A DNA stretch of 64,000 bases from an uncultured Eubacteriales bacterium (GTDB lineage Bacteria; Bacillota; Clostridia; Oscillospirales; Acutalibacteraceae), in assembly GCA_934511365.1 (NCBI GenBank), contig CAKSWC010000003.1, forward strand, positions 116,227 to 180,226. The letters run 5' to 3'. Of the stretch, positions 5,713 through 27,215 are shown piece after piece (the first letter of the stretch is position 1; every line of letters begins with the position of its first letter). A model generated the notes under the pieces. The model was not told where the DNA came from and searched no databases. It saw only the letters and a program-made list of their open reading frames with translations. A program made the position numbers and the translations under genes.

Positions 5713-5762
5713 AAAAACTCAGGTTTTATCGGCAGTTGCACACATTTCTCGCTCGCACATTT

Positions 5763-5791: not shown

Positions 5792-5824
5792 GGACGTAAA
5801 ATACAAGCCAAGGAGGAAATGACT

Positions 5825-6004: not shown

Positions 6005-6007
6005 ATT

Positions 6008-6364: not shown

Positions 6365-6457
6365 AAAGCCAACAGCTGATGTGATTATAAAACCACATCA
6401 GCTGTTTTTCTGCTTTTTGATTTTGATTATTACTTGCTTTTTTTAGTAAGCAAATGA

Positions 6458-10182: not shown

Positions 10183-10218
10183 AACTATACTCCTAACGGC
10201 TGAAAATAGTACAAGGAT

Positions 10219-10247
10219 ATTATAGCAGAATAATCAATATTTTTCAA
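10219..10247 (-). promoter_or_regulatory. Minus-strand promoter (TTGAAA-17-TATAAT) for the MTase/REase operon
   Basis: On the minus strand the sequence reads ttgaaaaatattgattattctgctataat, about 35 nt upstream of the MTase start. Confidence 0.35.
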
Positions 10248-10303
10248 ATGAATGATTACACATTTTTTATGAACACGTGTTTTAAGTGCTCATAAAATAC
10301 TAT

Positions 10304-13300
10304 TTAGTATCCTCTCAGTATTTCTCTTATTTCTACATCTTTAGCATACAGATTCAAGTTGTCTATCTTATCTTTGATATATTGTTTGTGTTCCAAATAC
10401 TCTATGCCGTGTATTTCTTGGGATAATTTGTTCAAGAATTCAATTTTATTATGAATCAATGGGACCTCGCTACCTGACCAAGAACAAAAACTTGAAAACA
10501 ATGGAAGACCTTTAAAGTTTTCTATGCTTTTATCACACTCCAGATAGAGTTTGATGTACGTGATTCTTTGAGCATCTGTCATTTTTGATATGGAATCAAA
10601 AAGGCTCCTCATATATATGTCGTTCGAATAATACTTTTTTATAAAATTGCAAAGAAAAGCATTAACCTTTTCTTTGTCTTTATAAGCATTTATTACATCA
10701 AAGAATTCTGTTAATTCATAGTGAGGATAATCAATTCTTTCTTTAATGACATCGGCAATATGTTCAAATGAAGCGCAAAACTCATCTGTTTCAAACAACT
10801 TAGTTATATGATCTGAATGATCCCTAAAATCACGATGCTTTTGTTTGATTATTGTAAATAAATAATTATCTAGAAAAGCTTTATTATTTTCAAATAATAT
10901 TTTAAAGTATAGACCGTGATAATCAAAGTATCTTTCATAGGATAACTCAAACAGATAAATTTGCTCTAATAAATCCATTTTAGTTGAAAACAATTCAAGC
11001 ACATCGGAAACAGGGGTTATTCCATCGTGAAAAAGAAAGCTAAAATAAATATGGACAATAAATGGACTTGCTTGTTTTTTGTTTAGAATAATTTTACAAG
11101 TTTTAATAAAGATATCGGGATCTATAGATTTGAACTTTGTAACAAAAACTATTCTTCTAAAGCCAGACGAAGTAATCGCTTTATCTGAATCATCGAGAAG
11201 AAAAGAATAAAAATCTTCAATGGTATTTTTCTGTATCTTATCATTCGGAAAATGATAAAAGTAAAAATAAATCCATTCGTTTTTCTGAGTGTATTCATTC
11301 GCTTTGAGTAATCGTAATACATCTTCAGGCTCCATTAAGCTAAACAAGTACTCAATAATTTTTGTTGGAGAGAGTTTGGCTGGTGTATCGACTTTAAAAT
11401 AATACTCTACTGTCTCTACAAAATAGATTTTGTATTCATATAGAATATCAAATAGAAGACTTAATCCTTCTGATATTTCATATTTATTATTAATGCAAGA
11501 TTCATTACAAACATCAATTATCGAACAAATTGCAGAAAAATCAGCATTTCTAATCATTTCTTTAATTTTGCCCTTACGGACGATGAGTTCATCATCAAAC
11601 TCTTTATATTTTAGCTTATTCTCACCTTTGATTGTTTTATATATTTTAAGGATATACGAAGATAAATAATTCTTAACAAGCGATTGGTCAATAAACTTTT
11701 CTAGATCGCTCTCCCTCAAAAAAGCTATATAATTATCAACAAGAATACAATCTTCGAGATTGTCCGAATTAAATGAAGAGTCAATTAATCTATAAATAAA
11801 TGGGCAATCCGTTTCAATAATCTGATTGCTTTCGTCTGCTCCATCGCCGTATTCTCTTAATATGTCACGAATACATATTTTTGAATCCTGAGTTAGACAT
11901 ATTTCATATAGTAATGTCCATACTTTTTTTCTTAGATTTACAATCAGCTCACCTCCACGTATGGTAATATAATTAATTGTAAATGATCTTTCTCCGTTCG
12001 ATTCTGTCCATTCAAATCGGAATTTTAAAAGGTGTTTAGCAACATCAAAAAACAGATATGTTACAGCTTCGTTTGTCCAGTTTTCAGAATATCCTTTCAG
12101 CTTTTCGAGTAAAAGATTTTCAACACGATACTCAAATCTGTCGGAATACTTATTGAACACTAAACGCTGCTTTATTATTGCATAAAACTGTTCGTATAAA
12201 TCCGGTCTTTTCTTATAATATAATAAAAGCAAATCTAATGCTTCAGAATAATTATCACATTGATAAAAACCACCAAGTATTTCAATTACATCATCAGTGA
12301 TAGATTCCGATTGTTTTTCTTTTGATAAATTTTTGTTAAATGGCCTTTCTTCTGATTCATCAATTATTCCTTTAAGAATCAGAAGAGTAGCAGTTTCATT
12401 AACTGGATAAAATGCCTTTACATAATCAAAGAAAACAGATGGATCGTTTTCGGCTAATTCATCCCATACTTTACTTATTTCTTGATTAACATAAGCTATC
12501 ATTTCATCAGAGGAAAAGGATATGGTTAAAACATTTACAGACGTTATTGTTTTTGATTGATTGACAGGGAAGTAAACTTTAATGGCATCAGAAAGAAGGA
12601 TCAGTTTTTTATCAAAAAATACATATTTCAGAATATAGTTGGATAAGCACTGTTCTGAAATTTTTACTGCCTTTTTAGCATAGATATCAATTAGCTCGTA
12701 TGAATGAAGTTTATAAATACTTTCAATAAAGGTTTCTTTGCTAATATGAGAAACGGATAGTAAAGGTTCAATAAAATCCAAATTATCAATATGAAATGCG
12801 TCAACAAAAGCAACTATTCCAAAAGTAATAATTAAATCTTTTTCATCACACAATTTATACTCTTCAATAACCCGACCATAATAATTTTCATATAACTTGG
12901 ACACATCTGCTAATGAAGCTAAAGCGTTTTCTCTTCGTGCTGTTATTCCGGCAATCATAGCTATGCGGGCGTTTCCGTTTGATATTTCAGATATTCTTTT
13001 AAGATAATGCTGATTTTTAATACCAAGGTTAACTTTGATAATCTCTTCAATCTTTTCTTTATCAAATGGCTTAACTTTTATTATTCCATACCTTGCAAAC
13101 TCCATTATTTTTTTATGGACTTCATTGAGTGCGTAATCTCTTACGGTAATAATTATTTTAACAATAATTCCATTTTCTTTTTTTAATAAGTATTGCAAAA
13201 TATGTGACAATCCAGCAATTTGGTTTGCGTCATCAACAAAAAGTAAATATTTGCCAGGATGATTTATATGCATTTGAAGTTCTTCATATATAGGAAGCGC

Positions 13301-14023
13301 ATTGTCCCTTATACATAGCAGAGTTTCTCCTTGTTCGGAGCTGCGATTTTTAGCGAATTCAACTGCTAATCTTGTTTTTCCTGTTCCTGCGGTACCTGAT
13401 ATTACTGCGACATCATATTCTTCTAATACTTCATCAAGCTTTTTTATTTCATCTTCTCGATACAGAAATTCGTTATCTAATGGTGCCGAAAAAGCTGATG
13501 AATCATTTTGTTTAATAAAATCCTCTATGCTAAATATCTGGTTTGTATCATAAGATATTTGCAAATAATCTTTTGCTAAATCTCTTCTTTCGGAGAAAAG
13601 ATGATTGGCGATTCTATCTATTCCCCACATATTAAACACAATACTCTTCTCTTCACACATTTCACAAAACTCTTTATGAACCGCAGGTTTTAAATTTGAG
13701 GATGTATGAAAGTATATGATTTCTGATATATCTTTACTATCAATGCCGGTTTCACTTGAATTTAAGCATTTTTGGATATCATCAGTAATCTTTTTACGAA
13801 GTCCTGTTTGCTGTGTTGTATATTCAACAAAAACATATTTGTTATCCTCATTGATACAATACGTGTCAGGAGTTCCTAGAGTCGTTTTTTGAGTTCCCGA
13901 TTGGCTGCCTAGTGAAACAAAATTAGAGTATCCTAATGAATATAGTATTTGATCGCAAATGTTTTGAAAAGTCCCTTGATCCAATTCTAATATTTTCTGT
14001 TTGATTGTATTAATTATCGCCAT
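10304..14023 (-). CDS. Large STAND-like P-loop NTPase (N-terminal nuclease-like domain, central NTPase, long helical C-terminus); candidate defence protein
   Basis: Walker A VISGTAGTGKTRLAVEF and Walker B YLLFVDDANQ lie near residues 205-270. The N-terminal roughly 170 aa contain GTPDTYCINEDNKYVFVEYTT, a PD-(D/E)xK-like core. About 900 aa of alpha-helical-looking sequence follow. The probable start is the ATG at 14023 with GAGGTG upstream (the ORF track begins at GTG 14032). Confidence 0.5.
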   Translation of the reverse strand: MAIINTIKQKILELDQGTFQNICDQILYSLGYSNFVSLGSQSGTQKTTLGTPDTYCINEDNKYVFVEYTTQQTGLRKKITDDIQKCLNSSETGIDSKDISEIIYFHTSSNLKPAVHKEFCEMCEEKSIVFNMWGIDRIANHLFSERRDLAKDYLQISYDTNQIFSIEDFIKQNDSSAFSAPLDNEFLYREDEIKKLDEVLEEYDVAVISGTAGTGKTRLAVEFAKNRSSEQGETLLCIRDNALPIYEELQMHINHPGKYLLFVDDANQIAGLSHILQYLLKKENGIIVKIIITVRDYALNEVHKKIMEFARYGIIKVKPFDKEKIEEIIKVNLGIKNQHYLKRISEISNGNARIAMIAGITARRENALASLADVSKLYENYYGRVIEEYKLCDEKDLIITFGIVAFVDAFHIDNLDFIEPLLSVSHISKETFIESIYKLHSYELIDIYAKKAVKISEQCLSNYILKYVFFDKKLILLSDAIKVYFPVNQSKTITSVNVLTISFSSDEMIAYVNQEISKVWDELAENDPSVFFDYVKAFYPVNETATLLILKGIIDESEERPFNKNLSKEKQSESITDDVIEILGGFYQCDNYSEALDLLLLYYKKRPDLYEQFYAIIKQRLVFNKYSDRFEYRVENLLLEKLKGYSENWTNEAVTYLFFDVAKHLLKFRFEWTESNGERSFTINYITIRGGELIVNLRKKVWTLLYEICLTQDSKICIRDILREYGDGADESNQIIETDCPFIYRLIDSSFNSDNLEDCILVDNYIAFLRESDLEKFIDQSLVKNYLSSYILKIYKTIKGENKLKYKEFDDELIVRKGKIKEMIRNADFSAICSIIDVCNESCINNKYEISEGLSLLFDILYEYKIYFVETVEYYFKVDTPAKLSPTKIIEYLFSLMEPEDVLRLLKANEYTQKNEWIYFYFYHFPNDKIQKNTIEDFYSFLLDDSDKAITSSGFRRIVFVTKFKSIDPDIFIKTCKIILNKKQASPFIVHIYFSFLFHDGITPVSDVLELFSTKMDLLEQIYLFELSYERYFDYHGLYFKILFENNKAFLDNYLFTIIKQKHRDFRDHSDHITKLFETDEFCASFEHIADVIKERIDYPHYELTEFFDVINAYKDKEKVNAFLCNFIKKYYSNDIYMRSLFDSISKMTDAQRITYIKLYLECDKSIENFKGLPLFSSFCSWSGSEVPLIHNKIEFLNKLSQEIHGIEYLEHKQYIKDKIDNLNLYAKDVEIREILRGY

Positions 14024-14056
14024 ATATTTCACCTCGTTTGAATCTGTTTTGTTTTA

Positions 14057-14974
14057 TTAAATTATATCATTATCTTTTTGTTCCCGCAACAAGTATAACA
14101 GTTTAAAACCAATCTTTTCTATCGCCTTTTCACAAACTCTCTTAGCCGTACTCGCATTACTAAACCCGTGATTGGTAGCGATGTCGGTATAAGGAAGAGG
14201 TTTGGTTGGCTTTTCTTTCGGCTTGCCATTTTCGTCTAAATCATTCTTGTCAGCGTAGCGAGTGCTGAAACACTCCGGGCAAAAGCCGAGGTGCTGGGCG
14301 AGCATTATTTTTTCTGTGTATTCCAAGCTGTCATAGGCTTCATACAGTTTATCATAAAGCTCCTGCTTGAAATAGATATTTTCATGATTGAGTGAGGAAT
14401 CGGGAAGAAGAAAATTTGTTGTCTGTTCGTCGTCCTCATCGTTACTCTGAACATCTACATAGTTTTCAGTAAGAATACCGGCTTCAATGATAGACTTTGT
14501 TTTATCATAGCTTTCACCGATTTGCGCTGCAACCTGAGAAATGGTTTCCTCCGTAAATTCACCGCCTGAATGATTGAAAATATCCATCACTTTACGAAGT
14601 CGGGCATATTCAAATTCGCTCTGCACGGAATAGCCCGTCCGCATTGTGCGGATATAGGTATGCGCCTCACGCTCCATATACCTCTGAGCATACGGCAGAA
14701 AAGGAGCTATGGAAATATCGTATTTCATCAGAGCCTTACATAAGCCTGTTACAAGGCTTTGCTTTATATCGGCAAAATGTTCTTCCATTGAGTATTTATT
14801 CCTAAAAAACTTCGCCTTTTCATTTAACGACGGCTCGTAATAGTGTAGGAACCAATAGAAATAATTGTCATCGCCGGTCTGGATATACTGCCAAATATAC
14901 TCCTGCAAATCCCATTCAGGCGGTGGCGGAGTAATGCGGTATATTTCAAATTCTTTTTTCTCGATATGGCTCAC
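14057..14974 (-). CDS. Hypothetical protein, possibly a sigma-70-family (ECF-like) regulator
   Basis: YEPSLNEKAKFFRNKYSMEEHFADIKQSLVTGLCKAL looks like sigma region 2, and the C-terminal segment STAKRVCEKAIEKIGFKLL looks like a region-4 HTH. The stop/start overlaps the upstream gene (ATGA at 14971-14974). Family assignment is tentative. Confidence 0.35.
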   Translation of the reverse strand: MSHIEKKEFEIYRITPPPPEWDLQEYIWQYIQTGDDNYFYWFLHYYEPSLNEKAKFFRNKYSMEEHFADIKQSLVTGLCKALMKYDISIAPFLPYAQRYMEREAHTYIRTMRTGYSVQSEFEYARLRKVMDIFNHSGGEFTEETISQVAAQIGESYDKTKSIIEAGILTENYVDVQSNDEDDEQTTNFLLPDSSLNHENIYFKQELYDKLYEAYDSLEYTEKIMLAQHLGFCPECFSTRYADKNDLDENGKPKEKPTKPLPYTDIATNHGFSNASTAKRVCEKAIEKIGFKLLYLLREQKDNDII

Positions 14975-16116
14975 TTTTGCTTGATTCTCCTGTCCGTTTC
15001 TCTATACAAATTCTCACGCTTCATATCCATTTTAAATTGACCGTTAGCGTAGTTGTCATCATACTTTGCTTTTTGCCAATACTCTTTAGCGACTTTCAGC
15101 GCCATTGCAGCAAACTCTGCTGTAATGGTGCTTCTTTTTTGTTCTACACGAATTGCAGAGCAACGGCTCTTGTAAATTGGATTGATAGGGTTACCTTCGG
15201 AAAGCTCCTTTTCCTTCATCCTCGCCGCATATTTTCGGCAGGAAATTGTTTTTCCTTTCAGCGTATAGGGCGCAATACCGTTGCAATACACCTGCCGCCT
15301 TGCAGAAGTCATCAGGAAATAGCGCTTGCAGATCGGACACCTTTTCGGATAATGACCGTAGTACAAGCCCTCAAAAAAATCCGTGAGGACAAAGCTGTAG
15401 TACTTGTCAAAAAACATTCTTCTCGCCGTAATAATCGTTTTGCTTTTATCCGTTTTACGCATAGCAACATACTCGGATGTCATATAGAGCTTTTCGTTGC
15501 CGAATATATCCAATGCAATCGGTAATAGGTGCGGCTCGTCAAAGCATTCCGCTTCATCAAGTCTGTTACAAAACTCAGTTAAGCCCTCAAATGCTTCTCT
15601 CATATCGATGCTGATACGATCATAGAAAGCCAGTGTTGTCATCATATCATTAAGTAGGTTGTCCGCTGTTTTTTGCTGAACTTTATCTATTTCAATCGGG
15701 AGCAAATCCAAAGCAGATTCATTGATTCCCATAGCTAATATTTGAGCCTTTGCATTGAAATACTCTCGGATAAATTCAGCGTTGTTCTCTGTGAAAAGTT
15801 CAGCTATTCTAATACACTCTGCTTCAACATCCAGCTTAGTGAACGGTTGCAGTTTAGGCAAGGTTTTTAAGATTTGGTGGATCTCCCACCCGGATCGTAA
15901 AACATCAGTGTTATCAAGATAACCGGCAGAGATCGTATCGTATAAATGCCAGCTGTATTGTTTGTATATAGCCAACCTAGCCGCCGTATCGTCCTTATAG
16001 TATTGATTCAAAAGGTGCGTAGCGAACGTACCTGCAGGATAAGTTTTATTGCCGATCCGTATTCTTCCGTCACGAAAATCGGCGCTGAAAAAGCTGATTT
16101 TTTCCAAAATCAACAC
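14971..16116 (-). CDS. Hypothetical protein with a C-terminal Cys cluster (CPICKRY...CNG...C)
   Basis: A long ORF and the first gene of the minus-strand cargo operon. The C-terminal third carries a zinc-ribbon-like CxxC...C...C arrangement and a basic tail. I recognise no family. Confidence 0.5.
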   Translation of the reverse strand: MLILEKISFFSADFRDGRIRIGNKTYPAGTFATHLLNQYYKDDTAARLAIYKQYSWHLYDTISAGYLDNTDVLRSGWEIHQILKTLPKLQPFTKLDVEAECIRIAELFTENNAEFIREYFNAKAQILAMGINESALDLLPIEIDKVQQKTADNLLNDMMTTLAFYDRISIDMREAFEGLTEFCNRLDEAECFDEPHLLPIALDIFGNEKLYMTSEYVAMRKTDKSKTIITARRMFFDKYYSFVLTDFFEGLYYGHYPKRCPICKRYFLMTSARRQVYCNGIAPYTLKGKTISCRKYAARMKEKELSEGNPINPIYKSRCSAIRVEQKRSTITAEFAAMALKVAKEYWQKAKYDDNYANGQFKMDMKRENLYRETDRRIKQK

Positions 16117-16328
16117 CTCCTCACTATCAAGTCTACCAAAACAGGTGTCCCATAAAACTCCCTTTGCTCCGTTTTAGAAGAAATTTTTGAAAAATTTTTG
16201 AATTATTATTTTCCGTAATATAAAATTATCAGCTTGAATTCTGATTGTTCAGTATTCAAGCCGTTTTTTAGTGTTTTCTTTTTGATTTTCACTATGTTTT
16301 CTTAAAACCCTAAGTTTTCGGATTTTCG

Positions 16329-16377
16329 TGTATTTAATACAGTAGAGGGACGAAAAGCCCTCCAAAATACACGAAAG
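16329..16377. repeat. Nested palindrome in the divergent promoter region (12-bp inverted repeat enclosing GAGGG...CCCTC)
   Basis: tttcgtgtattt (16329-16340) pairs with aaatacacgaaa (16366-16377) as perfect inverted repeats, flanking gagggacgaaaagccctc. Confidence 0.4.
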
Positions 16378-16389
16378 GAGGAACAAGCT

Positions 16390-16626
16390 ATGGTGCTGAA
16401 AATTACCGAAGAGCTGTCCGACAGAGTAAACCGCATTGTCCGTCATTCGTGCTGCAACTGCATTGACGACAACTGCCTGTTGCTCGACTACGGCGAAGAA
16501 CACAGCTGCGTGCAGCTGATCAGCAAGTACGGCATTTACTGCAACTATCTTTTGAAATGCATATTGCCTGCTCTCCCAAAACTCTACGGCGACATACTCG
16601 CCTACAACGAAAAACTGAAAGGATGA
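16390..16626 (+). CDS. Small Cys-rich protein (cysteine-rich VLP-like) upstream of parM
   Basis: The 78-aa product has eight Cys (HSCCNCIDDNCLLLDYGEEHSCVQ...CNYLLKCILPALPK). GGAGG lies upstream, and the gene ends 4 nt before parM. Confidence 0.4.
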   Translation: MVLKITEELSDRVNRIVRHSCCNCIDDNCLLLDYGEEHSCVQLISKYGIYCNYLLKCILPALPKLYGDILAYNEKLKG

Positions 16627-16630
16627 TTTT

Positions 16631-17566
16631 ATGAAAACACTAAACAATTTTAAGATTATCGGTATCGACCACGGTTACGGCAACATCAAAACCGCTAACC
16701 ATTGTTTTAAGACCGGTATAACCACCCACGACAGTGAACCGCTGTTTACAAAGGATATGCTAACCTACAACGGCAAGTATTATCTGATAGGCGAAGGACA
16801 CAAAGAGTTTCTGCCCGAAAAGCAGAATGATGAGGATTATTATATCCTCACACTCGCCGCTATCTCAACCGAGCTTTCGGACGAAGGGCTGACCGAAGCG
16901 GATGTGATTATCGCCGCAGGTTTGCCTTTAACTTGGACAAGCGGACAGAAAGCGGATTTTGCCGCTTATCTGTCAAAGAGCAAAGAGGTAGCGTTCACTT
17001 TTCGTAATGTAGAGTATCATATCCGAATCTGTGATGTAAAAATCTATCCGCAGGGATATTCTGCGGTCGTGCCTATCAAGTCTACGCTCAAAGGATTGAG
17101 TATGGTAGCCGATATCGGCAACGGTACGATGAACACACTCTACCTTGTCAACGGCAAGCCGCAGAGCGGTAAGATGTTCACTGAGAAGTTTGGCACTTAT
17201 CAATGCACTCTTGCTATTCGTGAGGGCTTTATGCGTAAGACGCGCAGAGAGTTGAACGACTATCTTATCGACGAGGTGTTGCAGACAGGCATGTCGGATA
17301 TTCCAGATTCCGATTTGGAGATCATCACTGCTATTGCGGAGGAATATGTTGCCGAGATTTTCCGCCGCTTGCGTGAACACGGCTATGATGAAAGCACGAT
17401 GAAGCTCTACGTCTGCGGTGGCGGAGGTTGCCTGATCAAGAATTTCTATCACGGCAATCTCGACCGTGTAAAGTTCATTGACGATATCTGCGCTGCCGCT
17501 AAAGGCTATGAATATCTTGCAGACGTTTATCTGAGAGCCGAGGCGAAGAATGAAGGACGTGTATAA
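16631..17566 (+). CDS. parM: ParM/StbA-family actin-like segregation ATPase
   Basis: Actin-fold motifs are present: phosphate-1 IIGIDHGYGNIKT, phosphate-2 VADIGNGTMN and adenosine YVCGGGG. Confidence 0.75.
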   Translation: MKTLNNFKIIGIDHGYGNIKTANHCFKTGITTHDSEPLFTKDMLTYNGKYYLIGEGHKEFLPEKQNDEDYYILTLAAISTELSDEGLTEADVIIAAGLPLTWTSGQKADFAAYLSKSKEVAFTFRNVEYHIRICDVKIYPQGYSAVVPIKSTLKGLSMVADIGNGTMNTLYLVNGKPQSGKMFTEKFGTYQCTLAIREGFMRKTRRELNDYLIDEVLQTGMSDIPDSDLEIITAIAEEYVAEIFRRLREHGYDESTMKLYVCGGGGCLIKNFYHGNLDRVKFIDDICAAAKGYEYLADVYLRAEAKNEGRV

Positions 17567-17567
17567 A

Positions 17568-17876
17568 ATGACAGTACGCTTTGACCTAACCGACGCCCGA
17601 GAGCGTGCTCTAGCAGAATATATGCAGACGCTTGACGTAAAGAAGTATCAATCCCGCAATCAGTTTGTGTTAGATGCGATTGCCGATTATGTAGATTTAC
17701 AATCGATCACCCGTGAACAGCACGAGGAGGATATCCGAAATATCATTCGTGAGGAAATGCGGGCTTGCTTTGCAGAAGCAAACTTCGCTCCGCAGGCTGT
17801 AAATCCTGCTTTAAGTGCAGACCAACAGGCGGAAGCCGAGCAGGATATTTTGGACGACCTCAAACTATTTGATTGA
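17568..17876 (+). CDS. Ribbon-helix-helix protein, putative ParR-like partner of ParM
   Basis: MTVRFDLTDARERALAEYMQ has the beta-strand-then-helix N-terminus typical of RHH proteins. It lies immediately downstream of parM, with its start 2 nt after the parM stop. Confidence 0.4.
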   Translation: MTVRFDLTDARERALAEYMQTLDVKKYQSRNQFVLDAIADYVDLQSITREQHEEDIRNIIREEMRACFAEANFAPQAVNPALSADQQAEAEQDILDDLKLFD

Positions 17877-17879
17877 CGG

Positions 17880-18117
17880 CACAATGACGGCAAATTTCAA
17901 GACCGATATTAAAATTGACGGCAAAATGCCGTCATATCAAGATAGTATTTTAATCAACAGCATAAGGCACAGAAGAACGGTTGAAATTAACACTCCGTGA
18001 CTGTGTCTTATACTGTAGCAAGCAGGGAATTTGTACGGCAAATTCCAAATACAACAGCTCCAAAGCTGTTGTAAATCTTTAGGGACACCCTAACACCCGA
18101 AGAAAGAAGGTAATATT
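17880..18117. promoter_or_regulatory. Candidate oriT/regulatory region upstream of mobC
   Basis: Contains several perfect inverted repeats: TGACGGCAaaaTGCCGTCA (17925-17943), ACAACAGCTccaaAGCTGTTGT (18053-18074) and GGAATTTGtacggcAAATTCC. tgacggcaaa is also a direct repeat. Confidence 0.3.
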
Positions 18118-18476
18118 TTTGAACGATAAAAATGCAAGAATCGAGCTGCGAGTTACGCAGTCCGAGAAAAAGAAGATAGCCCGGCTCGCCGAGAGCTGCG
18201 GCTTATCTCAATCCGAATATATCAGACAAAGGACATTGGGCTATGCGCCGAGGACAGTGCAACCTGATGTCTTTTTTTGATTTCTACCAAACGCTCTGCC
18301 GTTTGTGTGACGAGGTTGCCGATAAGGTATCACCTGAAACTGAACGAAAGCTGCTTGAAGTCGTAGACGAAATCCAACAGCGCCTACTTCTGCCGGAGAA
18401 ATCCTCTGCCAAGCAAATCTGTAAGGAGGTAACGACGTGGCAACAACAGGCTTCTGGCCCGTCAAAGGACGGCTAA
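18118..18476 (+). pseudogene. mobC: MobC-family relaxosome accessory gene, split by a frameshift at a T7 tract
   Basis: The TTG start at 18118 (RBS GAAGGT) gives LNDKNARIELRVTQSEKKKIARLAESCGLSQSEYIRQRTLG..., a MobC RHH N-terminus. The frame ends at 18279 immediately after gtcttttttt. Reading with one T fewer joins it to the 18243..18476 ORF, for a total of about 120 aa. Confidence 0.5.
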
Positions 18477-19837
18477 AAGATGTTATCAATTACGCTGAAA
18501 ATCCTGATAAAACTATCGAGCGCAAATATCTTGATGATGACTTAGCTGCCGCTCTCAATTACGTTGAGAACAGCGACAAAACCGACCAAACAATGTACGT
18601 CAGTGGAATAAACTGTCCGAAGAAAAGAGCTTACGAGCAGATGATGACCACAAAGCGACGTTTCGGCAAGCTCGGCGGAAATGTAGCGTATCACGGTTAT
18701 CAGAGCTTTCAGGCAGGAGAAGTCACGCCCGAAGAAGCGCACCAAATCGGCATTGAAACCGCCAAGCAAATGTGGGGTAATGATTATGAGATAGTTGTTA
18801 CGACACATCTGAATACGGCAAACCTACACAATCATATCGTCGTAAATAGTGTATCGTTCCGCACCGGACGGAAGTTTGAAAATCATATTTCCGACCACTA
18901 CAAGCTGCGTGAGATTTCCGACGAGGTCTGTCGTGAGCACGGAAAATCTGTAATAGAAAACGCTCCGTTCTACGGCGGCGACAAGGCGTATTGGGTACGC
19001 AAGAGCGGACGAATACCGCACAAGGATATGCTGCGGCAAGATGTTGATGAAGCCTTAGCCAATACGATCAAGCCGTTTGATTTTGAATTATATCTTCGCT
19101 CGCTCGGCTATCAGTTTGTGCGGACTTTTAAATATCAGCATCCTTCCGTGATCGCTCCTGACTGGCTGAAACCTGTCAGATTAAGCAGTCTTGGCAAGGA
19201 TTACTCCAGAGAAGCGATACTCAGACGGCAGCAATCTCAGCGTGAGGATAAATACTTCGTGGATTTCTATTCCTATACGCCGAAATCTTATTATCAGCGC
19301 CAACCGCTGATAGTGAGAATCAGGGATTTTGAGAAAAGAACAGAACCCGATGTTATCACGGCGCTGTTTGACCTGATTATCACGATTGCCAAGCTCATCA
19401 CAGGCAACAATGTCCAAAAGAGAGATTACCGTCCGGTATCACCTGAGCTGCGGGCAGAAATCAGAAATCTCGACCGAACGCTGGCGGAATATCATTTTCT
19501 CCGTGACCACAACGTGGAATGTGCAGAGGATTTTGTGTCTTGCCGAAAGGAAATCGCCGAGCAAATCAAGGCTTATGAAACCGAGCGACAGCACATCCGC
19601 AACCGAATCCGCAGAGCTAAATCACCCGAAGAAAATAATTCTCTTAAAGAACAATGTAGAAAAATCACAAAAAAGCTGACACCCTTGCGTAAGCAGTTCA
19701 TTATCTGCGGGCGCATTGAAAACAAAGTGCTTCGACTCCGTGCTTTGATCGAACAGGAAAAGCAGCTGGAGCAAGGCAGATACAAGTACAAATATTATCA
19801 CCAAAATAAAACGAAACAAAGGAGTTATGAACGATGA
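18437..19837 (+). CDS. Relaxase/mobilization nuclease (MobA/VirD2 family)
   Basis: Has the three-His motif HLNTANLHNHIVVNSV and the expected N-terminal relaxase region (INYAENPDKT...). It overlaps the mobC end. Confidence 0.8.
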   Translation: MATTGFWPVKGRLKDVINYAENPDKTIERKYLDDDLAAALNYVENSDKTDQTMYVSGINCPKKRAYEQMMTTKRRFGKLGGNVAYHGYQSFQAGEVTPEEAHQIGIETAKQMWGNDYEIVVTTHLNTANLHNHIVVNSVSFRTGRKFENHISDHYKLREISDEVCREHGKSVIENAPFYGGDKAYWVRKSGRIPHKDMLRQDVDEALANTIKPFDFELYLRSLGYQFVRTFKYQHPSVIAPDWLKPVRLSSLGKDYSREAILRRQQSQREDKYFVDFYSYTPKSYYQRQPLIVRIRDFEKRTEPDVITALFDLIITIAKLITGNNVQKRDYRPVSPELRAEIRNLDRTLAEYHFLRDHNVECAEDFVSCRKEIAEQIKAYETERQHIRNRIRRAKSPEENNSLKEQCRKITKKLTPLRKQFIICGRIENKVLRLRALIEQEKQLEQGRYKYKYYHQNKTKQRSYER

Positions 19838-20681
19838 CCAATATATCAATCAACAAATTACACGAATTCAGAGACCACCCGTATCAGGTGCTCGACAATG
19901 AGGAGATGAACAGCTTAATCGAGAGCGTTCAGCAGCAGGGCATTATGACGCCGCTGATTGTACGTCCGTTAGAGGACACAACAGATGAATATGAAATCAT
20001 ATCGGGACACCGCCGCTTTCGTGCGGCACAGAAGGCAGGGCTCACAGAAGTCCCTGCCTTTATTCGTCCCGTCAGCCGTGACGAAGCAGCGATTATGGTG
20101 GTGGACAGCAATCTCCACAGGGAGCATCTTCTGCCGTCGGAAAAGGCGTTTGCTTACAAGCTGAAAGCCGAAGCGCTCAAGCATCAGGGACAGCGTACTG
20201 ATCTCACTTCGGAGCAACTTGCACCGAAGTTATCGACTGAGCTGATTGCCGAACAGGAGGAAACCAGCAAAGATACAGTAAAACGCTATATCCGTCTGAC
20301 AAAGCTTATCCCCGATATTCTCAAAATGGTCGATGAGCAGCGTATAGCTTTCAGTGTCGGCGTGGAGCTATCTTATCTAACCGAAAATGAGCAGCAGGAT
20401 TTGTTTGAAGCTATCGAGTTGTAGGACAAAACGCCCTCGCTCTCACAGGCGATACAAATGAAAAAGCTCTCTCAGGCAGGCAAACTTGACAGCGAAACCA
20501 TATCAAAAATCATATCCGAGGAAAAACCGAATCAGCGTGAGAAAATTAGTTTTCAAATTGAAAAGCTGACTAAATTCTTTCCGAAAAGTTACACCCCGAG
20601 AGATATCGAACGCAAAATAATCAAGCTGATTGAGGACGACTATCGTAGCCGTCAGCGAAACAAAAACAGGGAGGAAAGATA

Positions 20682-20682
<1 letters not shown>
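19834..20682 (+). pseudogene. ParB/Srx-like nuclease-domain gene interrupted by an in-frame TAG at 20422-20424
   Basis: The ParB motif ISGHRRFRAAQKAG is present. ORF 19834..20424 and ORF 20458..20682 are in the same frame and separated by a single amber codon. Read through, the product would be about 282 aa. Confidence 0.5.
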
Positions 20683-22620
<1,938 letters not shown>

Positions 22621-22687
22621 GACAAAAGGCGAGCAGGCACAAAACCTGCTCACCACATACAAACCGGATGAAATTGAATAAAAGAAT

Positions 22688-22736
22688 GAGTGTCCATAAC
22701 ATAAATCCGTTATGAACACTCATACTGGTCCGAGTG
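22688..22736. repeat. Right junction (attR-like): palindromic site plus the tRNA 3' end
   Basis: gagtgtccataac-ataaatcc-gttatgaacactc is an imperfect palindrome at 22688-22721. The 22-bp terminal inverted repeat occupies 22700-22721, followed by atac and then tggtccgagtg (22726-22736), which is the 3' end of the tRNA. Confidence 0.5.
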
Positions 22737-22802
22737 ACAGGACTTGAACCTGCGGCCTCTTGACCCCCAGTCAAGCGCGCTACCAAGCTGCGCTACACCC
22801 GG
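22726..22802 (-). tRNA. tRNA-Pro (anticodon GGG)
   Basis: I folded it by hand on the minus strand. The 7-bp acceptor stem includes one G-U pair; U8 A9 are present; the D arm is GCGC/AGCTTGGTA/GCGC; the anticodon stem is CTTGA/TCAAG with loop CTGGGGG (U33, anticodon GGG); the T arm is GCAGG-TTCAAGT-CCTGT; a 3' CCA is encoded. Confidence 0.85.
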
Positions 22803-23048: not shown

Positions 23049-23486
23049 TGCTAACAGTATTAACTCAAGCAGTGCTTCCCACCATAGGAGTCCAGTCCTC
23101 CGAGGTGTCAAGACTGCTTGAACTGTCGGACGGAAGTATATCACAGACAGATGACGGCGTCAAGTATTTTTCGGATATTGACAGCGAGGTCAAAAACAGC
23201 CTGCACCACTCGATTGGGATTTCCGACAGCACGGCAGAAGAAGGTCTTGTTGCGCAAAACGAGGAATACCGAAAGCTTATCGGTGAACTTCAAACTCAGC
23301 TTGAAAAAACGGCATGGAAATGTTATCAACTTTGTTAAAAAATTATAAATAATTATTTCTGCATTTTGTATAGAAATTTTTTGAAGTTTGTGTTATATTT
23401 TAGATAATAAGATCAGAGAACGTACTTGACATTTTGAATTCTGCGTTGCATTGGTCTTATAGAAAATGAATGGAGGCGTTTTACCA

Positions 23487-24644
23487 ATGATTATCGGAAT
23501 CCCTAAAGAAATTATGCATGAAGAAGACCGCGTTGCAGCAACTCCCGACACTGTTAAACAATATGTAGCTCTCGGTGCAGAAGTTCTTGTTGAAAAGAAT
23601 GCCGGCGCCGGTGCCCATTTCACCGATGACCAGTATATCGCGGCGGGCGCAAAAATTGTTCCCGATGTTGCAGAGCTATATGACCGCGCTGAGGTTATCC
23701 TCAAGGTTAAAGAACCTCTTTTCAATGAAGCCAAAGGCAAGCACGAAATTGAAATGATGCATAAAGGCCAGTATCTTATCACATTCATTCACCCGGCTTC
23801 TCCCGTTAACCATCAGATGGTTAAAGATATGGCTGCAAAGGGCGTTATCTCAATCACTCTTGACGGTATTCCCAGAATTTCAAGAGCACAGTCAATGGAT
23901 GCGCTCACCTCAATGAGTACTTGCGCAGGATATAAAGGCATGATTATGGCTGCCGACAGGCTCCCGTGGTTTATCCCAATGACTGCCTGTGCAGTTGGCG
24001 TTATCAAACCGGCCAAGATTCTTGTTCTCGGCGCCGGTGTTGCCGGAATGCAGGCTCTTGCAACGGGAAAGCGTCTCGGCGGTGTTATTCATGCTGCGGA
24101 TATCAGACCAATGGGTCAGGAGAATGCACTTTCGCTCGGAGCAAAAATTATTGACCTTGGAATTGATCCGGCTCTTGCAGTCGGTGAGGGCGGCTATGCT
24201 CTTCGTCTTCCGGATGATGTCCTTGAGGGAGAAAGAAACACTCTTGCAAAAATACTTCCGGAAATGGATATCGTTTTCTGTTCGGCTCTTATTCCCGGAA
24301 AACTCGCTCCGATTCTCATCACGGAAGAAATGGTTAAGAAGATGAAGCCCGGTTCGGTTATCGTTGACATTTCAATCGACCAGGGCGGTAACTGTGAAAT
24401 TACGCCCAAGGGTGATATCGAGGTCAAGCACGGCGTTACAATCATTGGAACGAAAAACATTCCCGGAATACTTCCGACAAGCTCAACCTGGATGTTTGCC
24501 AACAATATGCTTGAGCTTGTGAAGTTCATGACTAAGGACGGCAAAATTGTTCTTGATATGGATGATGCAATCATCAAATCTGCACTCACAACGATCGACG
24601 GTAAAATTGTTCACGCCGGTGCGCTTGAGGCTATGGGTCTTTAA
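23487..24644 (+). CDS. pntA: NAD(P) transhydrogenase subunit alpha part 1 (PntAA)
   Basis: Has the alanine dehydrogenase/PNT fold with a Rossmann motif (VLGAGVAGMQA). Start MIIGIPKE at 23487 follows AATGGAGG. Confidence 0.85.
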   Translation: MIIGIPKEIMHEEDRVAATPDTVKQYVALGAEVLVEKNAGAGAHFTDDQYIAAGAKIVPDVAELYDRAEVILKVKEPLFNEAKGKHEIEMMHKGQYLITFIHPASPVNHQMVKDMAAKGVISITLDGIPRISRAQSMDALTSMSTCAGYKGMIMAADRLPWFIPMTACAVGVIKPAKILVLGAGVAGMQALATGKRLGGVIHAADIRPMGQENALSLGAKIIDLGIDPALAVGEGGYALRLPDDVLEGERNTLAKILPEMDIVFCSALIPGKLAPILITEEMVKKMKPGSVIVDISIDQGGNCEITPKGDIEVKHGVTIIGTKNIPGILPTSSTWMFANNMLELVKFMTKDGKIVLDMDDAIIKSALTTIDGKIVHAGALEAMGL

Positions 24645-24667: not shown

Positions 24668-24700
24668 GCGCGGCTTCGTTTTCCTGAAGCCGCGCTTTTT
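24668..24700 (+). terminator. Intra-operon hairpin plus T5 between pntAA and pntAB
   Basis: The stem gcgcggcttc...gaagccgcgc is followed by ttttt. Confidence 0.35.
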
Positions 24701-24727
24701 AATTAAGCATAGGGGAGTTTGATAATT

Positions 24728-25036
24728 ATGACTATGAAAATTATTCTTGTGGTCGTTTTCCTTGTTTCAATGGTGGTCGGCTATAAGCTTATCAACAATG
24801 TTCCAAGCCTTCTTCATACACCGCTGATGTCAGGAATGAATGCGCTTTCCGGCGTTACCGTTCTTGGCGCGGTTTCTTCAACCGTTATAGCCGTCAGAGC
24901 CAATGAACCGATTATCGGATATGTTTTCGGTTCGCTTGCTCTTATTCTTGCAATGATCAATGTTGTCGGCGGATTCGGAGTCACAGGACGAATGCTCAAA
25001 ATGTTCAAATCTAAGGACAAGGGAGGTAAAAAGTAA
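24728..25036 (+). CDS. NAD(P) transhydrogenase subunit alpha part 2 (PntAB, membrane)
   Basis: About 100 aa, hydrophobic with three predicted TM segments, positioned between pntAA and pntB. Confidence 0.8.
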   Translation: MTMKIILVVVFLVSMVVGYKLINNVPSLLHTPLMSGMNALSGVTVLGAVSSTVIAVRANEPIIGYVFGSLALILAMINVVGGFGVTGRMLKMFKSKDKGGKK

Positions 25037-27024
25037 TGCCTGATTTGATTTACTATATTTCAAGCGCAATTCTTGTTTTAGGCGTTCTTGTTGGAATTTA
25101 CCTCATGAGCAAGGTTGAAAAGGCACATATCGGAAACAGTCTTTCAGCAGTTTCAATGGCGCTTGCAATCGCGCTGACAATGGTTAAATATGAGGTGTTC
25201 GGTTCAGACGTCAGAACAGCACTTGTTGTTATTGTTGTTTCAATGCTTATCGGTTCTGGAATTGGAGCATGGATCACCAAAAAGGTGAAAATGATTCAAA
25301 TGCCGCAAATGGTCGCGCTTCTTAACGGCTTCGGCGGAGGTGCCTCGGCGCTTGTTGGCGCTCTGACGCTTTTTAGCGATAAAGAGGCTGATGCTTTCAG
25401 CATTTTTACGGCCATGCTGGCCCTTGTTGTTGGTGTTGTTACTCTCATAGGTTCACTCATTGCTGCGGCGAAACTTGAGGGTATAATGAAGTCCAAACCG
25501 GTTGCTCTTCCCGGTCACAGCATTCTGACCGTTGTTTCACTTGTCGGTTCGCTCGCAGTTTGTGTTGCGGCAATTTTTGTTCACGCACTTCTGCCTCTTG
25601 CGGTTGCGGCTTTTGTTCTTTCTTTTGCATTTGGACTTTTCTTTTCAATTCGTGTCGGCGGAGCCGATATGCCAATTACAATATCATTGCTTAATTCATT
25701 CTCAGGCGTTGCCGGTGCAATAGCCGGTCTTGCAATTAAGGATGTTCTCCTTGTTGCCGTTGGAGGAATTGTTGGTGCCTCCGGTCTTATTCTGACTCAG
25801 ATTATGTGTCGCGCAATGAACCGTAGCTTGTTTGACATTCTCCTTGGAAAAACCTCGTCACACGGCAAAAAAGCCGACAAGGAAAAAACGGAAGAAAAAT
25901 CCGATGTCGAAAAGGAAGCCGTTCCGAAAAAAGCTGAAACGCTCCCCGAAGATAAAAAGCCGGCCGATCCGCTTTCATCGGTACTTAAAAACGCAAAGGA
26001 CGTTATTTTTGTTCCGGGTTACGGAATGGCACTTGCCCAGGCGCAGTCACTCGTCAAACAGCTTGAAGATAAACTTGAAAAGAACGGCGCCAATGTCCGC
26101 TATGCAATTCACCCTGTTGCCGGCCGTATGCCCGGACACATGAATGTTCTGCTTGCGGAGGTTGATGTTCCGTATGAAAAACTCTATGAAATGAAAGACA
26201 TCAACGATGATTTCAAAAACGCAGATGTCGCAATAGTTATCGGCGCAAATGATGTTATGAACCCGGCGGCAAAGGAAACGGAAAATACACCGATTTCCGG
26301 AATGCCGATACTTAATGTTGCCGACGCTAAGAACATTATTATCTGTAACTATGACCTCAAACCCGGTTATGCCGGAGTTGAAAATCCGCTTTATACAAAA
26401 GAGGAGGGCGTAACACTGCTTCTCGGTGACGCAAAAGAGAGCCTTATGAAGCTTCTCAAAGTTATGGATACCGCTGAAGAAGCACCGGATACCGAACACG
26501 AACAGTCTGAAAAAGAAGAAGTTTCCGTCGGCTCAATTCTTCAAAACGCAAAGGACGTTATTTTTGTTCCGGGTTACGGAATGGCACTTGCCCAGGCGCA
26601 GTCACTCGTCAAACAGCTTGAAGATAAACTTGAAAAGAACGGCGCCAATGTCCGCTATGCAATTCACCCTGTTGCCGGCCGTATGCCCGGACACATGAAT
26701 GTTCTGCTTGCGGAGGTTGATGTTCCGTATGAAAAACTCTATGAAATGAAAGACATCAACGATGATTTCAAAAACGCAGATGTCGCAATAGTTATCGGCG
26801 CAAATGATGTTATGAACCCGGCGGCAAAGGAAACGGAAAATACACCGATTTCCGGAATGCCGATACTTAATGTTGCCGACGCTAAGAACATTATTATCTG
26901 TAACTATGACCTCAAACCCGGTTATGCCGGAGTTGAAAATCCGCTTTATACAAAAGAGGAGGGCGTAACACTGCTTCTCGGTGACGCAAAAGAGAGCCTT
27001 ATGAAGCTCCTCAGCGCATTTTAA
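25036..27024 (+). CDS. pntB: NAD(P) transhydrogenase subunit beta (PntB) with a tandemly duplicated dIII NADP(H)-binding domain
   Basis: The N-terminal roughly 280 aa form the membrane domain. The same 154-aa dIII module (AKDVIFVPGYGMALAQAQ...GDAKESLMKL) then appears twice, with K/E-rich linkers between. The product is 662 aa against about 460 aa for typical PntB proteins. Confidence 0.8.
   Translation: MPDLIYYISSAILVLGVLVGIYLMSKVEKAHIGNSLSAVSMALAIALTMVKYEVFGSDVRTALVVIVVSMLIGSGIGAWITKKVKMIQMPQMVALLNGFGGGASALVGALTLFSDKEADAFSIFTAMLALVVGVVTLIGSLIAAAKLEGIMKSKPVALPGHSILTVVSLVGSLAVCVAAIFVHALLPLAVAAFVLSFAFGLFFSIRVGGADMPITISLLNSFSGVAGAIAGLAIKDVLLVAVGGIVGASGLILTQIMCRAMNRSLFDILLGKTSSHGKKADKEKTEEKSDVEKEAVPKKAETLPEDKKPADPLSSVLKNAKDVIFVPGYGMALAQAQSLVKQLEDKLEKNGANVRYAIHPVAGRMPGHMNVLLAEVDVPYEKLYEMKDINDDFKNADVAIVIGANDVMNPAAKETENTPISGMPILNVADAKNIIICNYDLKPGYAGVENPLYTKEEGVTLLLGDAKESLMKLLKVMDTAEEAPDTEHEQSEKEEVSVGSILQNAKDVIFVPGYGMALAQAQSLVKQLEDKLEKNGANVRYAIHPVAGRMPGHMNVLLAEVDVPYEKLYEMKDINDDFKNADVAIVIGANDVMNPAAKETENTPISGMPILNVADAKNIIICNYDLKPGYAGVENPLYTKEEGVTLLLGDAKESLMKLLSAF
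25991..27008 (+). repeat. Perfect 463-bp tandem direct repeat (copies at 25991-26453 and 26546-27008, period 555 bp)
   Basis: Comparing the two stretches base by base shows no differences over 463 bp, and the repeat is in-frame. Confidence 0.9.
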
Positions 27025-27040
27025 AATTAAAACATAAAAA

Positions 27041-27069
27041 ATACCGATCTTATGGGTCGGTATTTTTTT
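27041..27069 (+). terminator. Rho-independent terminator after pntB
   Basis: The stem ataccgatc...gggtcggtat is followed by ttttttt. Confidence 0.6.
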
Positions 27070-27215
27070 GCCTTATAAACCGAATTAACTGAAAAATATT
27101 GCCGCAACGAGTTAATTATCTCCTTTTCATAACTTGATTTTTTCGGCGATTATGATATAATTAATTGGTATTTTAATTTTTGGCGGCCTAAAGCCGCTGT
27201 TTGGGGGAATCACCA

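Follow-up and report, generated by a model that had tools for sequence, protein, structure and literature searches.

Tandem NADP(H)-binding domains in the PntB subunit of a gut anaerobe's transhydrogenase: a probable old duplication kept alike by recombination

Results

The transhydrogenase operon

The window, a 64,000-nucleotide stretch of contig CAKSWC010000003.1 from an uncultured Eubacteriales bacterium, contains a pntB gene that adjoins the pntA genes in one operon, in the order pntAA-pntAB-pntB and with a terminator after pntB. The features of the operon are as follows:

23466-24644, + strand: pntAA, encoding the soluble, NAD(H)-binding domain dI; open reading frame (ORF) of 392 aa without fused membrane helices
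24668-24695, + strand: pntAA-pntAB intergenic hairpin, G+C-rich, with an 11-bp stem (8 GC pairs) and a U-run after it
24719-25036, + strand: pntAB, encoding the 4-TM part of the membrane domain dII; ORF of 105 aa, homologues called at 102 aa
25036-27024, + strand: pntB; a single ORF of 662 aa comprising dII, a tether, dIII copy 1, a linker and dIII copy 2
27033-27070, + strand: intrinsic terminator directly 3' of pntB, with a U-run after it (-16.6 kcal/mol, z -5.2; equalled in stability by 0 of 200 shuffles)

PntAA has Pfam matches to AlaDh_PNT_N (4.4e-45) and AlaDh_PNT_C (8.3e-57), and gene calls of its homologues give 385 aa, the length expected from the ATG at 23487. PntAB matches PNTB_4TM (7.9e-27), and its stop codon overlaps the start of pntB (GTAATG). 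PntB scores 794.9 bits, in two stretches, against Pfam PF02233 (PNTB), for which the curated cut-off is 31.7 bits; lipoyl, biotinyl or PP-binding Pfam domains were not found in it. In every related locus that we compared, dI is a separate polypeptide. Gene order, soluble dI and a 4-TM alpha2 subunit are shared with the PntAA/PntAB/PntB enzymes of Thermus thermophilus and Rhodospirillum rubrum (4o9u, 4o9p, 1ptj), and the operon is predicted to be a genuine three-gene proton-translocating transhydrogenase of this type.

The promoter/terminator scanner missed the terminator of pntB, probably since the stem runs into A/U runs; folding confirmed it. The pntAA-pntAB hairpin may act by attenuation within the operon or by stabilising the mRNA, and locus L002 has one of different sequence at the same place. 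We examined this hairpin as a possible means of raising the dI:beta ratio in loci with several dIII copies, but by strict criteria 12 of the 57 multi-copy loci have it and so do 3 of the 20 single-copy loci, with no link to dIII copy number.

An exact in-frame repeat in pntB

Within pntB we distinguish these features:

25036-25851, + strand: dII membrane domain, aa 1-272, with nine predicted long helices (H3-24 to H237-260)
25852-25965, + strand: tether L0 from TM14 to dIII copy 1, aa 273-310, Lys/Glu-rich, with pLDDT below 50 and no secondary structure
25988-26453, + strand: dIII copy 1, the first repeat arm; a complete NADP(H)-binding Rossmann-type domain (repeat search, structure matches)
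26347-26355, + strand: codons of dIII copy 1 for N438-Y439-D440, where canonical enzymes have the loop-E KRS (K424-R425-S426 of the E. coli beta subunit)
26454-26542, + strand: inter-domain linker L1, unique 89 bp (…KVMDTAEEAPDTEHEQSEKEEVSVGSILQ), predicted to be disordered
26543-27008, + strand: dIII copy 2, the second repeat arm (exact repeat, predicted structure)
26902-26910, + strand: the same N-Y-D codons in dIII copy 2 (exact repeat)

The two arms form an exact direct repeat of 466 bp, as found by a repeat finder and by base-by-base comparison at offset 555; beyond it, one mismatch (CTT/CTC) is followed by four further matching bases. A perfect repeat of this length cannot arise by chance. 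The initial annotation had called the arms identical base for base, which is correct for the assembled sequence, but had made them 463 bp long; they reach 3 bp further to the left, and the spacer between them, given there as 92 bp, measures 89 bp. With a period of 555 bp, or 185 codons, the two arms share one reading frame, as had been claimed, and a single ORF spans both. Its translation gives the linker peptide exactly as that annotation wrote it. The 89-bp linker has no counterpart 555 bp upstream or 555 bp downstream. The proposed length of 662 aa and the presence of a complete dIII in each copy are borne out by ORF, Pfam, structure-match and AF2 evidence, and the two-copy structure of this pntB is not in doubt.

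The dII domain aligns with that of Thermus (4o9p_D, E 8.8e-37) over residues 17-272, about 256 residues, and with that of E. coli (9l76_C, 4.4e-35). It is of the Thermus type, with Asn97 at the place of E. coli His91, where Thermus also has Asn. The dIII domain matches those of E. coli (2bru_C, E 2e-54) and R. rubrum (1ptj_C, 6e-54); it is 55-60% similar to the Thermus/R. rubrum-type dIII and keeps all fingerprint motifs. Both copies carry GYGMA, HPVAGRMPGH, the Asp of GAND (D392 in E. coli), NPAA and GYAGV. The AF2 model (pLDDT 70, pTM 0.48) was used for domain and linker boundaries only; it places residues 481-495 of linker L1 below a pLDDT of 50, and tether L0 is likewise predicted to be disordered. 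The distance from MNRS to PGYG, which spans the tether, is 66 aa in the window protein compared with 48-55 aa in canonical KRS-type enzymes. We considered whether a longer tether between dII and dIII goes with copy number and rejected the idea: the longer tether tracks the N-x-D class, described below, as a whole.

The window beta subunit thus differs from its Thermus and R. rubrum counterparts in having two dIII domains (the number in relatives rises to at least five), in its longer tether and in having NYD rather than KRS. E. coli PntAB (9l76, 2bru) and mitochondrial NNT (6qti) have the dIII fold, the motifs and the dI/dII/dIII logic in common with it; unlike the window enzyme, they have a dI that is tethered to the membrane portion, a strict ratio of one dIII to each protomer, KRS and a channel His in TM9.

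Multi-dIII PntB proteins in anaerobes

Judged by its sequence, the window PntB belongs to a large clade from anaerobes whose members have from one to at least five dIII domains. Among 80 GTDB loci, one dIII is found in 24, two in 24, three in 29 and four in 7; among the 120 best database matches, 70 have three copies, 47 have four and one has five. PntB proteins with two, three, four and at least five dIII domains are common in Clostridia, Porphyromonas, Dysgonomonadaceae, Desulfovibrio and Riflebacteria. Among the carriers are a closed MAG chromosome and, as isolates, Porphyromonas uenonis DSM 23387 with three copies, P. miyakawae, and Desulfovibrio falkowii with one operon type of three and another of four copies, and there are homologues, some from cultured isolates, in which the dIII copies are well diverged. 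The traits of this group that the window protein displays are tandem complete dIII domains, low-complexity linkers, N-x-D, a free soluble dI and a long tether. The initial annotation was right that textbook PntB has one dIII, and its description of two as unusual stands against the characterised enzymes but fails for anaerobes, where the arrangement is frequent. Our literature search returned no description of the multi-dIII architecture or of the N-x-D class, an absence that is not proof; these transhydrogenases apparently form a widespread class that is undescribed.

The dIII copies of these proteins appear to be maintained by selection. The median dN/dS for pairs of copies within a protein is 0.12 (145 pairs), and all 187 copies that we aligned keep the PGYGMA, H-VAGRMPGH, GAND-Asp, NPAA and PGY motifs. 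No column of this alignment has a consensus specific to first or to distal copies, and on this ground we rejected sub-functionalisation of the distal copies. The linkers between dIII domains have a median length of 22 aa (range 14-30), are rich in A, E, D, K, S, T and P, and are predicted to be disordered.

Throughout the multi-dIII clade, KRS is absent and every copy has N-x-D instead. The alignment of the window with E. coli is ungapped here ('iiicNYDlkpGYAGV' / 'vivfKRSmntGYAGV'). KRS forms part of the NADPH site (PMC9529548), and its loss could mean that the nucleotide chemistry of these enzymes differs from that of the model enzymes. Two KRS-type proteins (P0137 and P0138) also have two dIII matches, so the multi-dIII architecture is not strictly limited to the N-x-D class.

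dIII copies within and between genomes

Two loci, L003 and L084, come from the same species as the window (their flanks are 99.3-99.4% identical) and encode two dIII copies that differ at 5-10 sites per 468 nt, with copy-specific SNPs. The initial annotation had suggested comparing the length of pntB in relatives. In the 90% protein cluster of the window PntB we found nine distinct 662-aa sequences, from separate samples and on contigs of up to 650 kb, while 7 of the 16 members have 477 aa, exactly one unit fewer; these shorter forms may reflect a polymorphic population or collapsed assemblies. Looking up the exact window protein in the contig index returned no record; the cluster lookup did place it, on a contig of 180 kb.

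The linker between the first two dIII copies, 'K[VA]MD...SVGS[IV]L', is also present in L001, whose dII is 8.5% diverged at the DNA level, and in L002 (22%), and is orthologous across the window, L001, L002 and L005 (likewise 22% diverged). L002 and L005 represent sister species and have three dIII copies joined by two different linkers. The dIII copies differ by 0-2% within a genome but by 8-14% from the orthologous copies elsewhere, or by 0-10 as against 39-70 differences per 468 nt, and in a tree they group by genome, not by position. L001 has about 40 substitutions common to both of its own copies, and L084 has a mosaic pattern at the variable sites.

Discussion

We consider it likely that the window contains a genuine transhydrogenase operon whose PntB has two tandem dIII domains with some 20-30 flexible linker residues between them, that these go back to an old duplication and have been kept alike by recombination, and we infer that the domains serve as carriers. 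The presence of an orthologous linker in L001 and L002 reveals that the duplication is older than the splits from those lineages. That the copies are more alike within than between genomes and share substitutions points to gene conversion, for which the evidence is a table of variable sites judged by inspection, together with the tree and the linker comparison. On these comparisons, the identical copies in the window are best taken as the product of concerted evolution of an old duplication, not as a fresh copy. Homologous recombination between the repeats, in the form of intragenic gene conversion or unequal crossing-over, would keep overwriting one copy with the other, and divergence would build up only in the unconstrained linkers. 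The same recombination would gain or lose whole 185-codon units, which would account for the one-, two- and three-copy versions found among close relatives. Concerted evolution is known from rRNA operons, tuf genes and repeat-domain surface proteins. As in these cases, pntB combines likeness within genomes, orthologous flanks that diverge, mosaic tracts and the gain and loss of units; what is repeated here, by contrast, is an entire catalytic domain that binds nucleotide, in a core bioenergetic enzyme.

The architecture could be real and its detail nevertheless distorted in the window, either because near-identical paths were merged or because three or more copies with identical linkers were collapsed into two. 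The contig is of the short-read type, and the absolute identity of the two copies could in part be a product of the assembler, given that close strains of the same species differ at 5-10 sites between copies. The three copies of the sister species and a 95% relative (L051) whose contig ends inside the repeat fit with such a distortion. However, the two linkers of the three-copy relatives are different, the unit would have to have been duplicated very recently for a third copy to share its linker, and conversion of the full length to complete identity is plausible, as copies within L010 and L015 reach 99.2-99.8%. We regard a distortion of this kind as rather improbable.

The initial annotation had offered a very recent duplication or an assembly artefact as the choice left by zero divergence, and we reject both in view of the orthologous linkers, the shared substitutions and the nine 662-aa versions. 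A very recent tandem duplication of the dIII segment in the window strain would explain why the arms are identical over all 466 bp. If this were the case, however, a period of 555 bp would predict 555 identical bp and not a spacer that has no counterpart, the linker would not be found in lineages with 8.5% and 22% divergence, and inter-species substitutions would not appear in both copies of each genome; such an event is most improbable. An artefact in which the assembler walked twice through the repeat of a single true dIII deserves hardly any credence: the contig resembles those assembled from short metagenomic reads and seven cluster members are shorter by exactly one unit, but a unique linker bounded left and right by dIII sequence implies two or more copies, the copy-specific SNPs of L003 and L084 permit unambiguous assembly of both, the distinct 662-aa sequences come from separate samples, homologues with well-diverged copies exist even in cultured isolates, and identical repeats should yield collapse to 477 aa rather than expansion.

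In known transhydrogenases the mobile dIII, with its non-covalently bound NADP(H), moves between a face-down position at the proton channel of dII and a face-up position at the NAD(H) site of dI. Tandem carrier domains are found in other enzymes: E. coli PDH E2p, for example, has three lipoyl domains, and PUFA synthases have tandem ACPs. Our functional reading draws on the mobile dIII cycle of E. coli PntAB and NNT, in which dIII comes loose and changes orientation between dII and dI as the enzyme turns over; isolated dI forms (dI)2(dIII)1 complexes (PMC13635403). By analogy, the tandem dIII domains would be equivalent mobile carriers of NADP(H) that use the one dII site in turn and recruit dimers of soluble dI, which would provide more hydride-transfer modules per membrane channel in the manner of tandem lipoyl domains or ACPs. 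Equivalent carriers sharing one proton channel seem to us the best functional reading. The lipoyl and ACP systems resemble the tandem dIII domains in having two to five or more small mobile domains in tandem, linkers of 15-30 residues rich in Ala, Pro and charged residues, a copy number that varies between relatives, near-identical copies and shuttling between fixed stations, which for dIII is presumed. They differ in that dIII must exchange its non-covalently bound NADP(H), and there is no homology; the analogy is one of mechanism only.

In canonical enzymes the release of NADP(H) that is coupled to dII is thought to be rate-limiting, and extra carriers would therefore bring little gain; the distal dIII domains may even be unable to dock on dII at all. 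An alternative explanation is that proton-coupled turnover involves the membrane-proximal dIII alone, and that the distal domains are anchors for dI, sensors of NADP(H) or uncoupled catalysts. As anchors they would hold the untethered dI dimer at the membrane; uncoupled transhydrogenation would be feasible if N-x-D allows nucleotide exchange without dII. This would fit with dI always being a free subunit in the clade, with the replacement of KRS by N-x-D in all copies and with only the first copy being joined to TM14. However, the absence of any residue column that separates proximal from distal copies, together with conversion that makes the copies interchangeable, renders distinct roles hard to reconcile with the data. 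All copies are under equally strong purifying selection, and from geometry linkers of 14-30 residues should let a distal domain reach dII. We therefore think a division of roles unlikely, although it merits serious attention.

Equivalent carriers could also be part of a larger departure from the model enzymes. As a tentative proposal, the transhydrogenase of these anaerobes might be mechanistically distinct, with two to five equivalent, flexibly tethered dIII heads sharing one channel and each recruiting a free dI dimer, and with N-x-D changing the affinity for NADP(H) or the nucleotide preference in such a way that multiplexing becomes useful. If true, dIII heads that share the channel in time would depart from the 1:1:1 ratio of domains that underlies the alternating-site model. 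In the structural models (E. coli, Thermus and ovine), each protomer has a single dIII, which alternates between the channel and dI. A widespread natural family under selection, with two to five dIII domains per channel, amounts to an unplanned experiment on the transhydrogenase mechanism, and bears on whether docking of dIII is position-specific, on what limits turnover and on how soluble dI is recruited.

The host of the window is a gut anaerobe, and the family is relevant to the redox physiology of gut and oral anaerobes. The replacement of KRS by N-x-D across the clade casts doubt on the NADP(H) specificity that automatic annotation assigns to these enzymes. Near-identical repeats within the gene make pntB prone to collapse and to contig breaks in short-read MAGs, which makes the copy number in databases unreliable; such events may lie behind the 477-aa forms and the truncation of L051. 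For cryo-EM and kinetics, P. uenonis, P. miyakawae and D. falkowii provide ready-made cultured variants.

A tandem dIII duplication in the transhydrogenase beta subunit

The window carries the genes of a proton-translocating transhydrogenase in the following order:

23466-24644, pntAA, encoding the soluble NAD(H)-binding domain dI (AlaDh_PNT_N and AlaDh_PNT_C matches)
24719-25036, pntAB (PNTB_4TM match)
25036-27024, + strand, pntB, 662 aa (PNTB, PF02233)
27033-27070, strong terminator 3' of pntB (-16.6 kcal/mol, z -5.2)

In the sequence, the stop codon of pntAB and the start codon of pntB overlap. Profile matches, domain homology and operon context place the operon in the PntAB family. The gene layout, the best alignment of the PntB membrane part (with 4o9p_D, the beta subunit of T. 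thermophilus; 8.8e-37), and the presence of Asn, as in T. thermophilus, where the E. coli beta subunit has His91, all indicate a three-subunit operon of the Thermus/Rhodospirillum type.

A repeat finder and base-by-base comparison at an offset of 555 reveal a direct repeat with two identical arms of 466 bp (25988-26453 and 26543-27008); both arms lie within the single pntB ORF, have a period of 555 bp or 185 codons, and enclose a unique 89-bp spacer (26454-26542); past one mismatch, four more bases are identical. The initial annotation had correctly recognized a perfect in-frame repeat, but its extent of 463 bp with a 92-bp linker falls three bases short on the left. The claim that the 662-aa PntB contains two NADP(H)-binding (dIII) domains is borne out: the protein matches PF02233 in two stretches (794.9 bits), and each arm aligns end to end with solved dIII structures (E. 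coli 2bru_C, 2e-54; R. rubrum 1ptj_C, 6e-54). An AlphaFold2 model (pLDDT 70) has nine long helices, a tether predicted to be disordered (residues 273-310, pLDDT <50), a Rossmann-type domain (312-478), a further stretch predicted to be disordered (481-495), and another domain (498-661) whose secondary structure is the same as that of the first.

The intergenic region of pntAA and pntAB contains a G+C-rich hairpin with an 11-bp stem and a U-run 3' of it (24668-24695). The hairpin is found in the same place in four related loci (L001, L003, L004, and L002), in L002 with another sequence. By attenuating transcription, it could cause more soluble dI than membrane subunits to be made. The hairpin is not linked to dIII copy number, being present in 12/57 multi-dIII and 3/20 single-dIII loci under strict criteria.

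Age of the duplication

The identity of the two copies had been interpreted as either an assembly artefact or a very recent duplication; both interpretations are rejected. An artefact with a single true dIII is ruled out by the context of the linker, which is unique and has dIII sequence on either side, so that at least two copies are needed, and by the relatives of the window protein. Its 90% cluster (P0273, P0274, P0277, and others) has 16 members; nine of them have 662 aa, differ from one another in sequence, and come from separate metagenomes, with contigs of up to 650 kb, and in several of these the amino-acid differences are limited to one dIII copy. In two loci of the same species (L003 and L084), with flanks 99.3-99.4% identical to the window, there are 5 to about 10 differences per 468 nt between copy 1 and copy 2, and both could therefore be assembled unambiguously. 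The other 7 of the 16 members have 477 aa, exactly one 185-aa unit less, and combine the upstream flank of copy 1 with the tail of copy 2. One contig with this form has a coverage of 4.4. Either a real recombinational deletion, i.e., copy-number polymorphism through unequal recombination, or a collapse of the repeat by short-read assemblers fits the 477-aa forms. In addition, the contig of a 95% relative (L051) ends within the repeat, and dIII counts in MAG-derived databases are therefore unreliable. The exact 100% copy identity in the window could in part be an assembler consensus.

A fresh 555-bp tandem duplication is ruled out because the linker would then be repeated exactly one period away, which it is not. 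Furthermore, the window linker (KVMDTAEEAPDTEHEQSEKEEVSVGSILQ) has orthologs in the relatives L001 (KAMDAAEEAPDTEQKQPEKEEASVGSILQ) and L002 (KAMDADDNKEENPKVESKKTSVGSVLK), whose membrane domains differ from that of the window at 71/840 and 184/840 nt, respectively. Per 468 nt, the copies within a genome differ at 0 (window, core), 5 (L003), 10 (L001), and 1 (L002, copies 1 vs 2) positions, whereas 39-47 differences separate copies of the window from those of L001, and 56-65 from those of L002. In a neighbour-joining tree the dIII copies cluster by genome, not by position. The variable-site table contains about 40 L001-specific substitutions that are found in both L001 copies, copy-specific flanks common to several genomes, and a mosaic pattern in L084. 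The orthologous linkers, the grouping by genome, the substitutions present in both copies, and the L084 mosaic argue for an ancestral duplication under concerted evolution, either by gene conversion or by unequal crossing-over. The window architecture is old, selected, and homogenised, which replaces its interpretation as a recent event or artefact. At the DNA level, RecA-type recombination between the identical 466-bp arms would both homogenise the copies and alter the number of units, and this step is well supported.

Distribution of multi-dIII proteins

The best 120 database matches contain two (2 proteins), three (70), four (47), or five (1) dIII, the sole five-dIII protein being N-terminally truncated. 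In eighty loci of GTDB species representatives, the number of full dIII per locus is one (24), two (24), three (29), or four (7). The taxa comprise Clostridia (Acutalibacteraceae, Christensenellaceae, Mageeibacillus, Fastidiosipila), Bacteroidales (Porphyromonas, Dysgonomonadaceae, Petrimonas, Prevotella), Desulfovibrio, Riflebacteria, and Limnochordia; cultured isolates (P. uenonis DSM 23387 and 60-3, P. miyakawae 13CB11C, D. falkowii 13CB8C) and a closed MAG chromosome (CP091734.1) are part of the set. A single dIII matches 744 proteins in the library of 50% cluster representatives (E<=1e-30); two or more dIII stretches occur in about 21 of the top 150 of these. The multi-dIII forms are a small share of PntB diversity, roughly 3%, yet sequence-rich. 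On the dII (membrane domain) tree the dIII number shifts between close relatives (1/3, 1/2, 2/3). The copies within one protein have DNA identities between 61% and 99.8%, and are homogenised in some lineages and not in others.

Desulfovibrio falkowii 13CB8C has two pnt operons (L062 and L063), with four and three dIII, about 49 kb apart on a 3.3-Mb contig. One dIII copy is 100% identical in DNA between the operons, a sign that conversion may act not just inside genes but also from one locus to the other. Four Limnochordia and Bacillota MAGs (L056, L058, L060, L061) have two dIII with 55-63% amino-acid identity, the second with its own conserved loop variant, N-L-D-R-S; in this lineage of diverged, non-homogenised copies, sub-functionalisation could show. 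A further architectural variant of the same clade occurs in 11 related loci (including L016, L022, L024, L026, L028, L031, L041, and L042), where pntAB is fused in frame to the pntB N-terminus, resulting in a 13-TM beta chain with 1-3 dIII.

The N-x-D class

Characterised transhydrogenases have one dIII per protomer and a KRS motif in loop E, and the window PntB departs from both. PMC9529548 places KRS in the site that binds NADPH and attributes the specificity for NADP(H) to loops D and E. In an ungapped alignment, the two window copies have NYD (26347-26355 and 26902-26910) in place of KRS (E. coli K424-R425-S426), and N-[YFLM]-D occupies this position in 187/187 related dIII copies. The best 150 representatives hold both classes (KRS/KRG in 90 motifs, N-x-D in about 70), with N-x-D in nearly all multi-dIII proteins. 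Two representatives, P0137 and P0138, are apparent exceptions with two dIII matches each and canonical KRS, a hint that tandem dIII may also have arisen, rarely, in the classical KRS class. The dII-dIII tether is both longer and more variable in the N-x-D class (medians 56-66 aa) than in the KRS type (median 52, tight at 48-55).

A full-text literature search turned up no account of either multi-dIII PntB or the N-x-D class, and database records for these proteins read just 'NAD(P)(+) transhydrogenase subunit beta'. The window is an ordinary member of the multi-dIII class; for transhydrogenase specialists, the class as a whole should come as a surprise, and it is directly testable in cultured organisms.

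Possible function of the additional dIII domains

Judged from their sequences, all dIII copies look functional and equivalent. Pairs of copies within a protein have a median dN/dS of 0.12 (range 0.02-0.49; n=145 pairs with measurable dS). Across 187 full dIII copies, there is no or almost no variation in PGYGMA, H-VAGRMPGH, the Asp of GAND, NPAA, and PGY..GV, and at no alignment column does the consensus set first copies apart from distal ones. The linkers between dIII have a median of 22 residues (14-30) and are composed of 20% Ala together with Glu, Asp, Lys, Ser, Thr, and Pro, and dI is a separate soluble polypeptide at every locus.

In solved enzymes dIII is mobile: docked face-down on dII, it exchanges NADP(H) and plugs the channel, and for hydride transfer it leaves dII toward dI; dI in isolation forms (dI)2(dIII)1 complexes (PMC13635403). 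At the protein level, equivalent dIII in tandem on flexible tethers, together with free dI, may act as tandem mobile carriers that would alternate at one channel and recruit dI dimers. Such carriers would be analogous to the tandem lipoyl domains of E2 chains or to tandem ACPs, which have linker composition, variable copy number, and near-identical repeats in common with the multi-dIII proteins. Alternative roles for the dIII copies, namely dI anchoring, regulation, or uncoupled exchange, are weakened by the lack of a proximal/distal distinction among the copies.

A neighbouring putative mobile element

Three related strains or species (L084, L003, L001) lack a segment of ~17 kb (5696-22725), whose insertion site is a tRNA-Pro(GGG) gene (22726-22802, minus strand). 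An 11-bp sequence is present at both junctions (5685-5695 and 22726-22736). The features of the segment include:

7666-10182, fused C5 and Eco57I-type DNA methylase (cargo)
10304-14032, STAND NTPase, 1241 aa (cargo)
18437-19837, MobA/VirD2 relaxase
20860-22620, large serine recombinase

The segment resembles an integrative mobilizable element whose cargo serves restriction-modification or defence; it also encodes a ParB-like protein, an actin-like protein, and, as further cargo, a DUF6076 protein.
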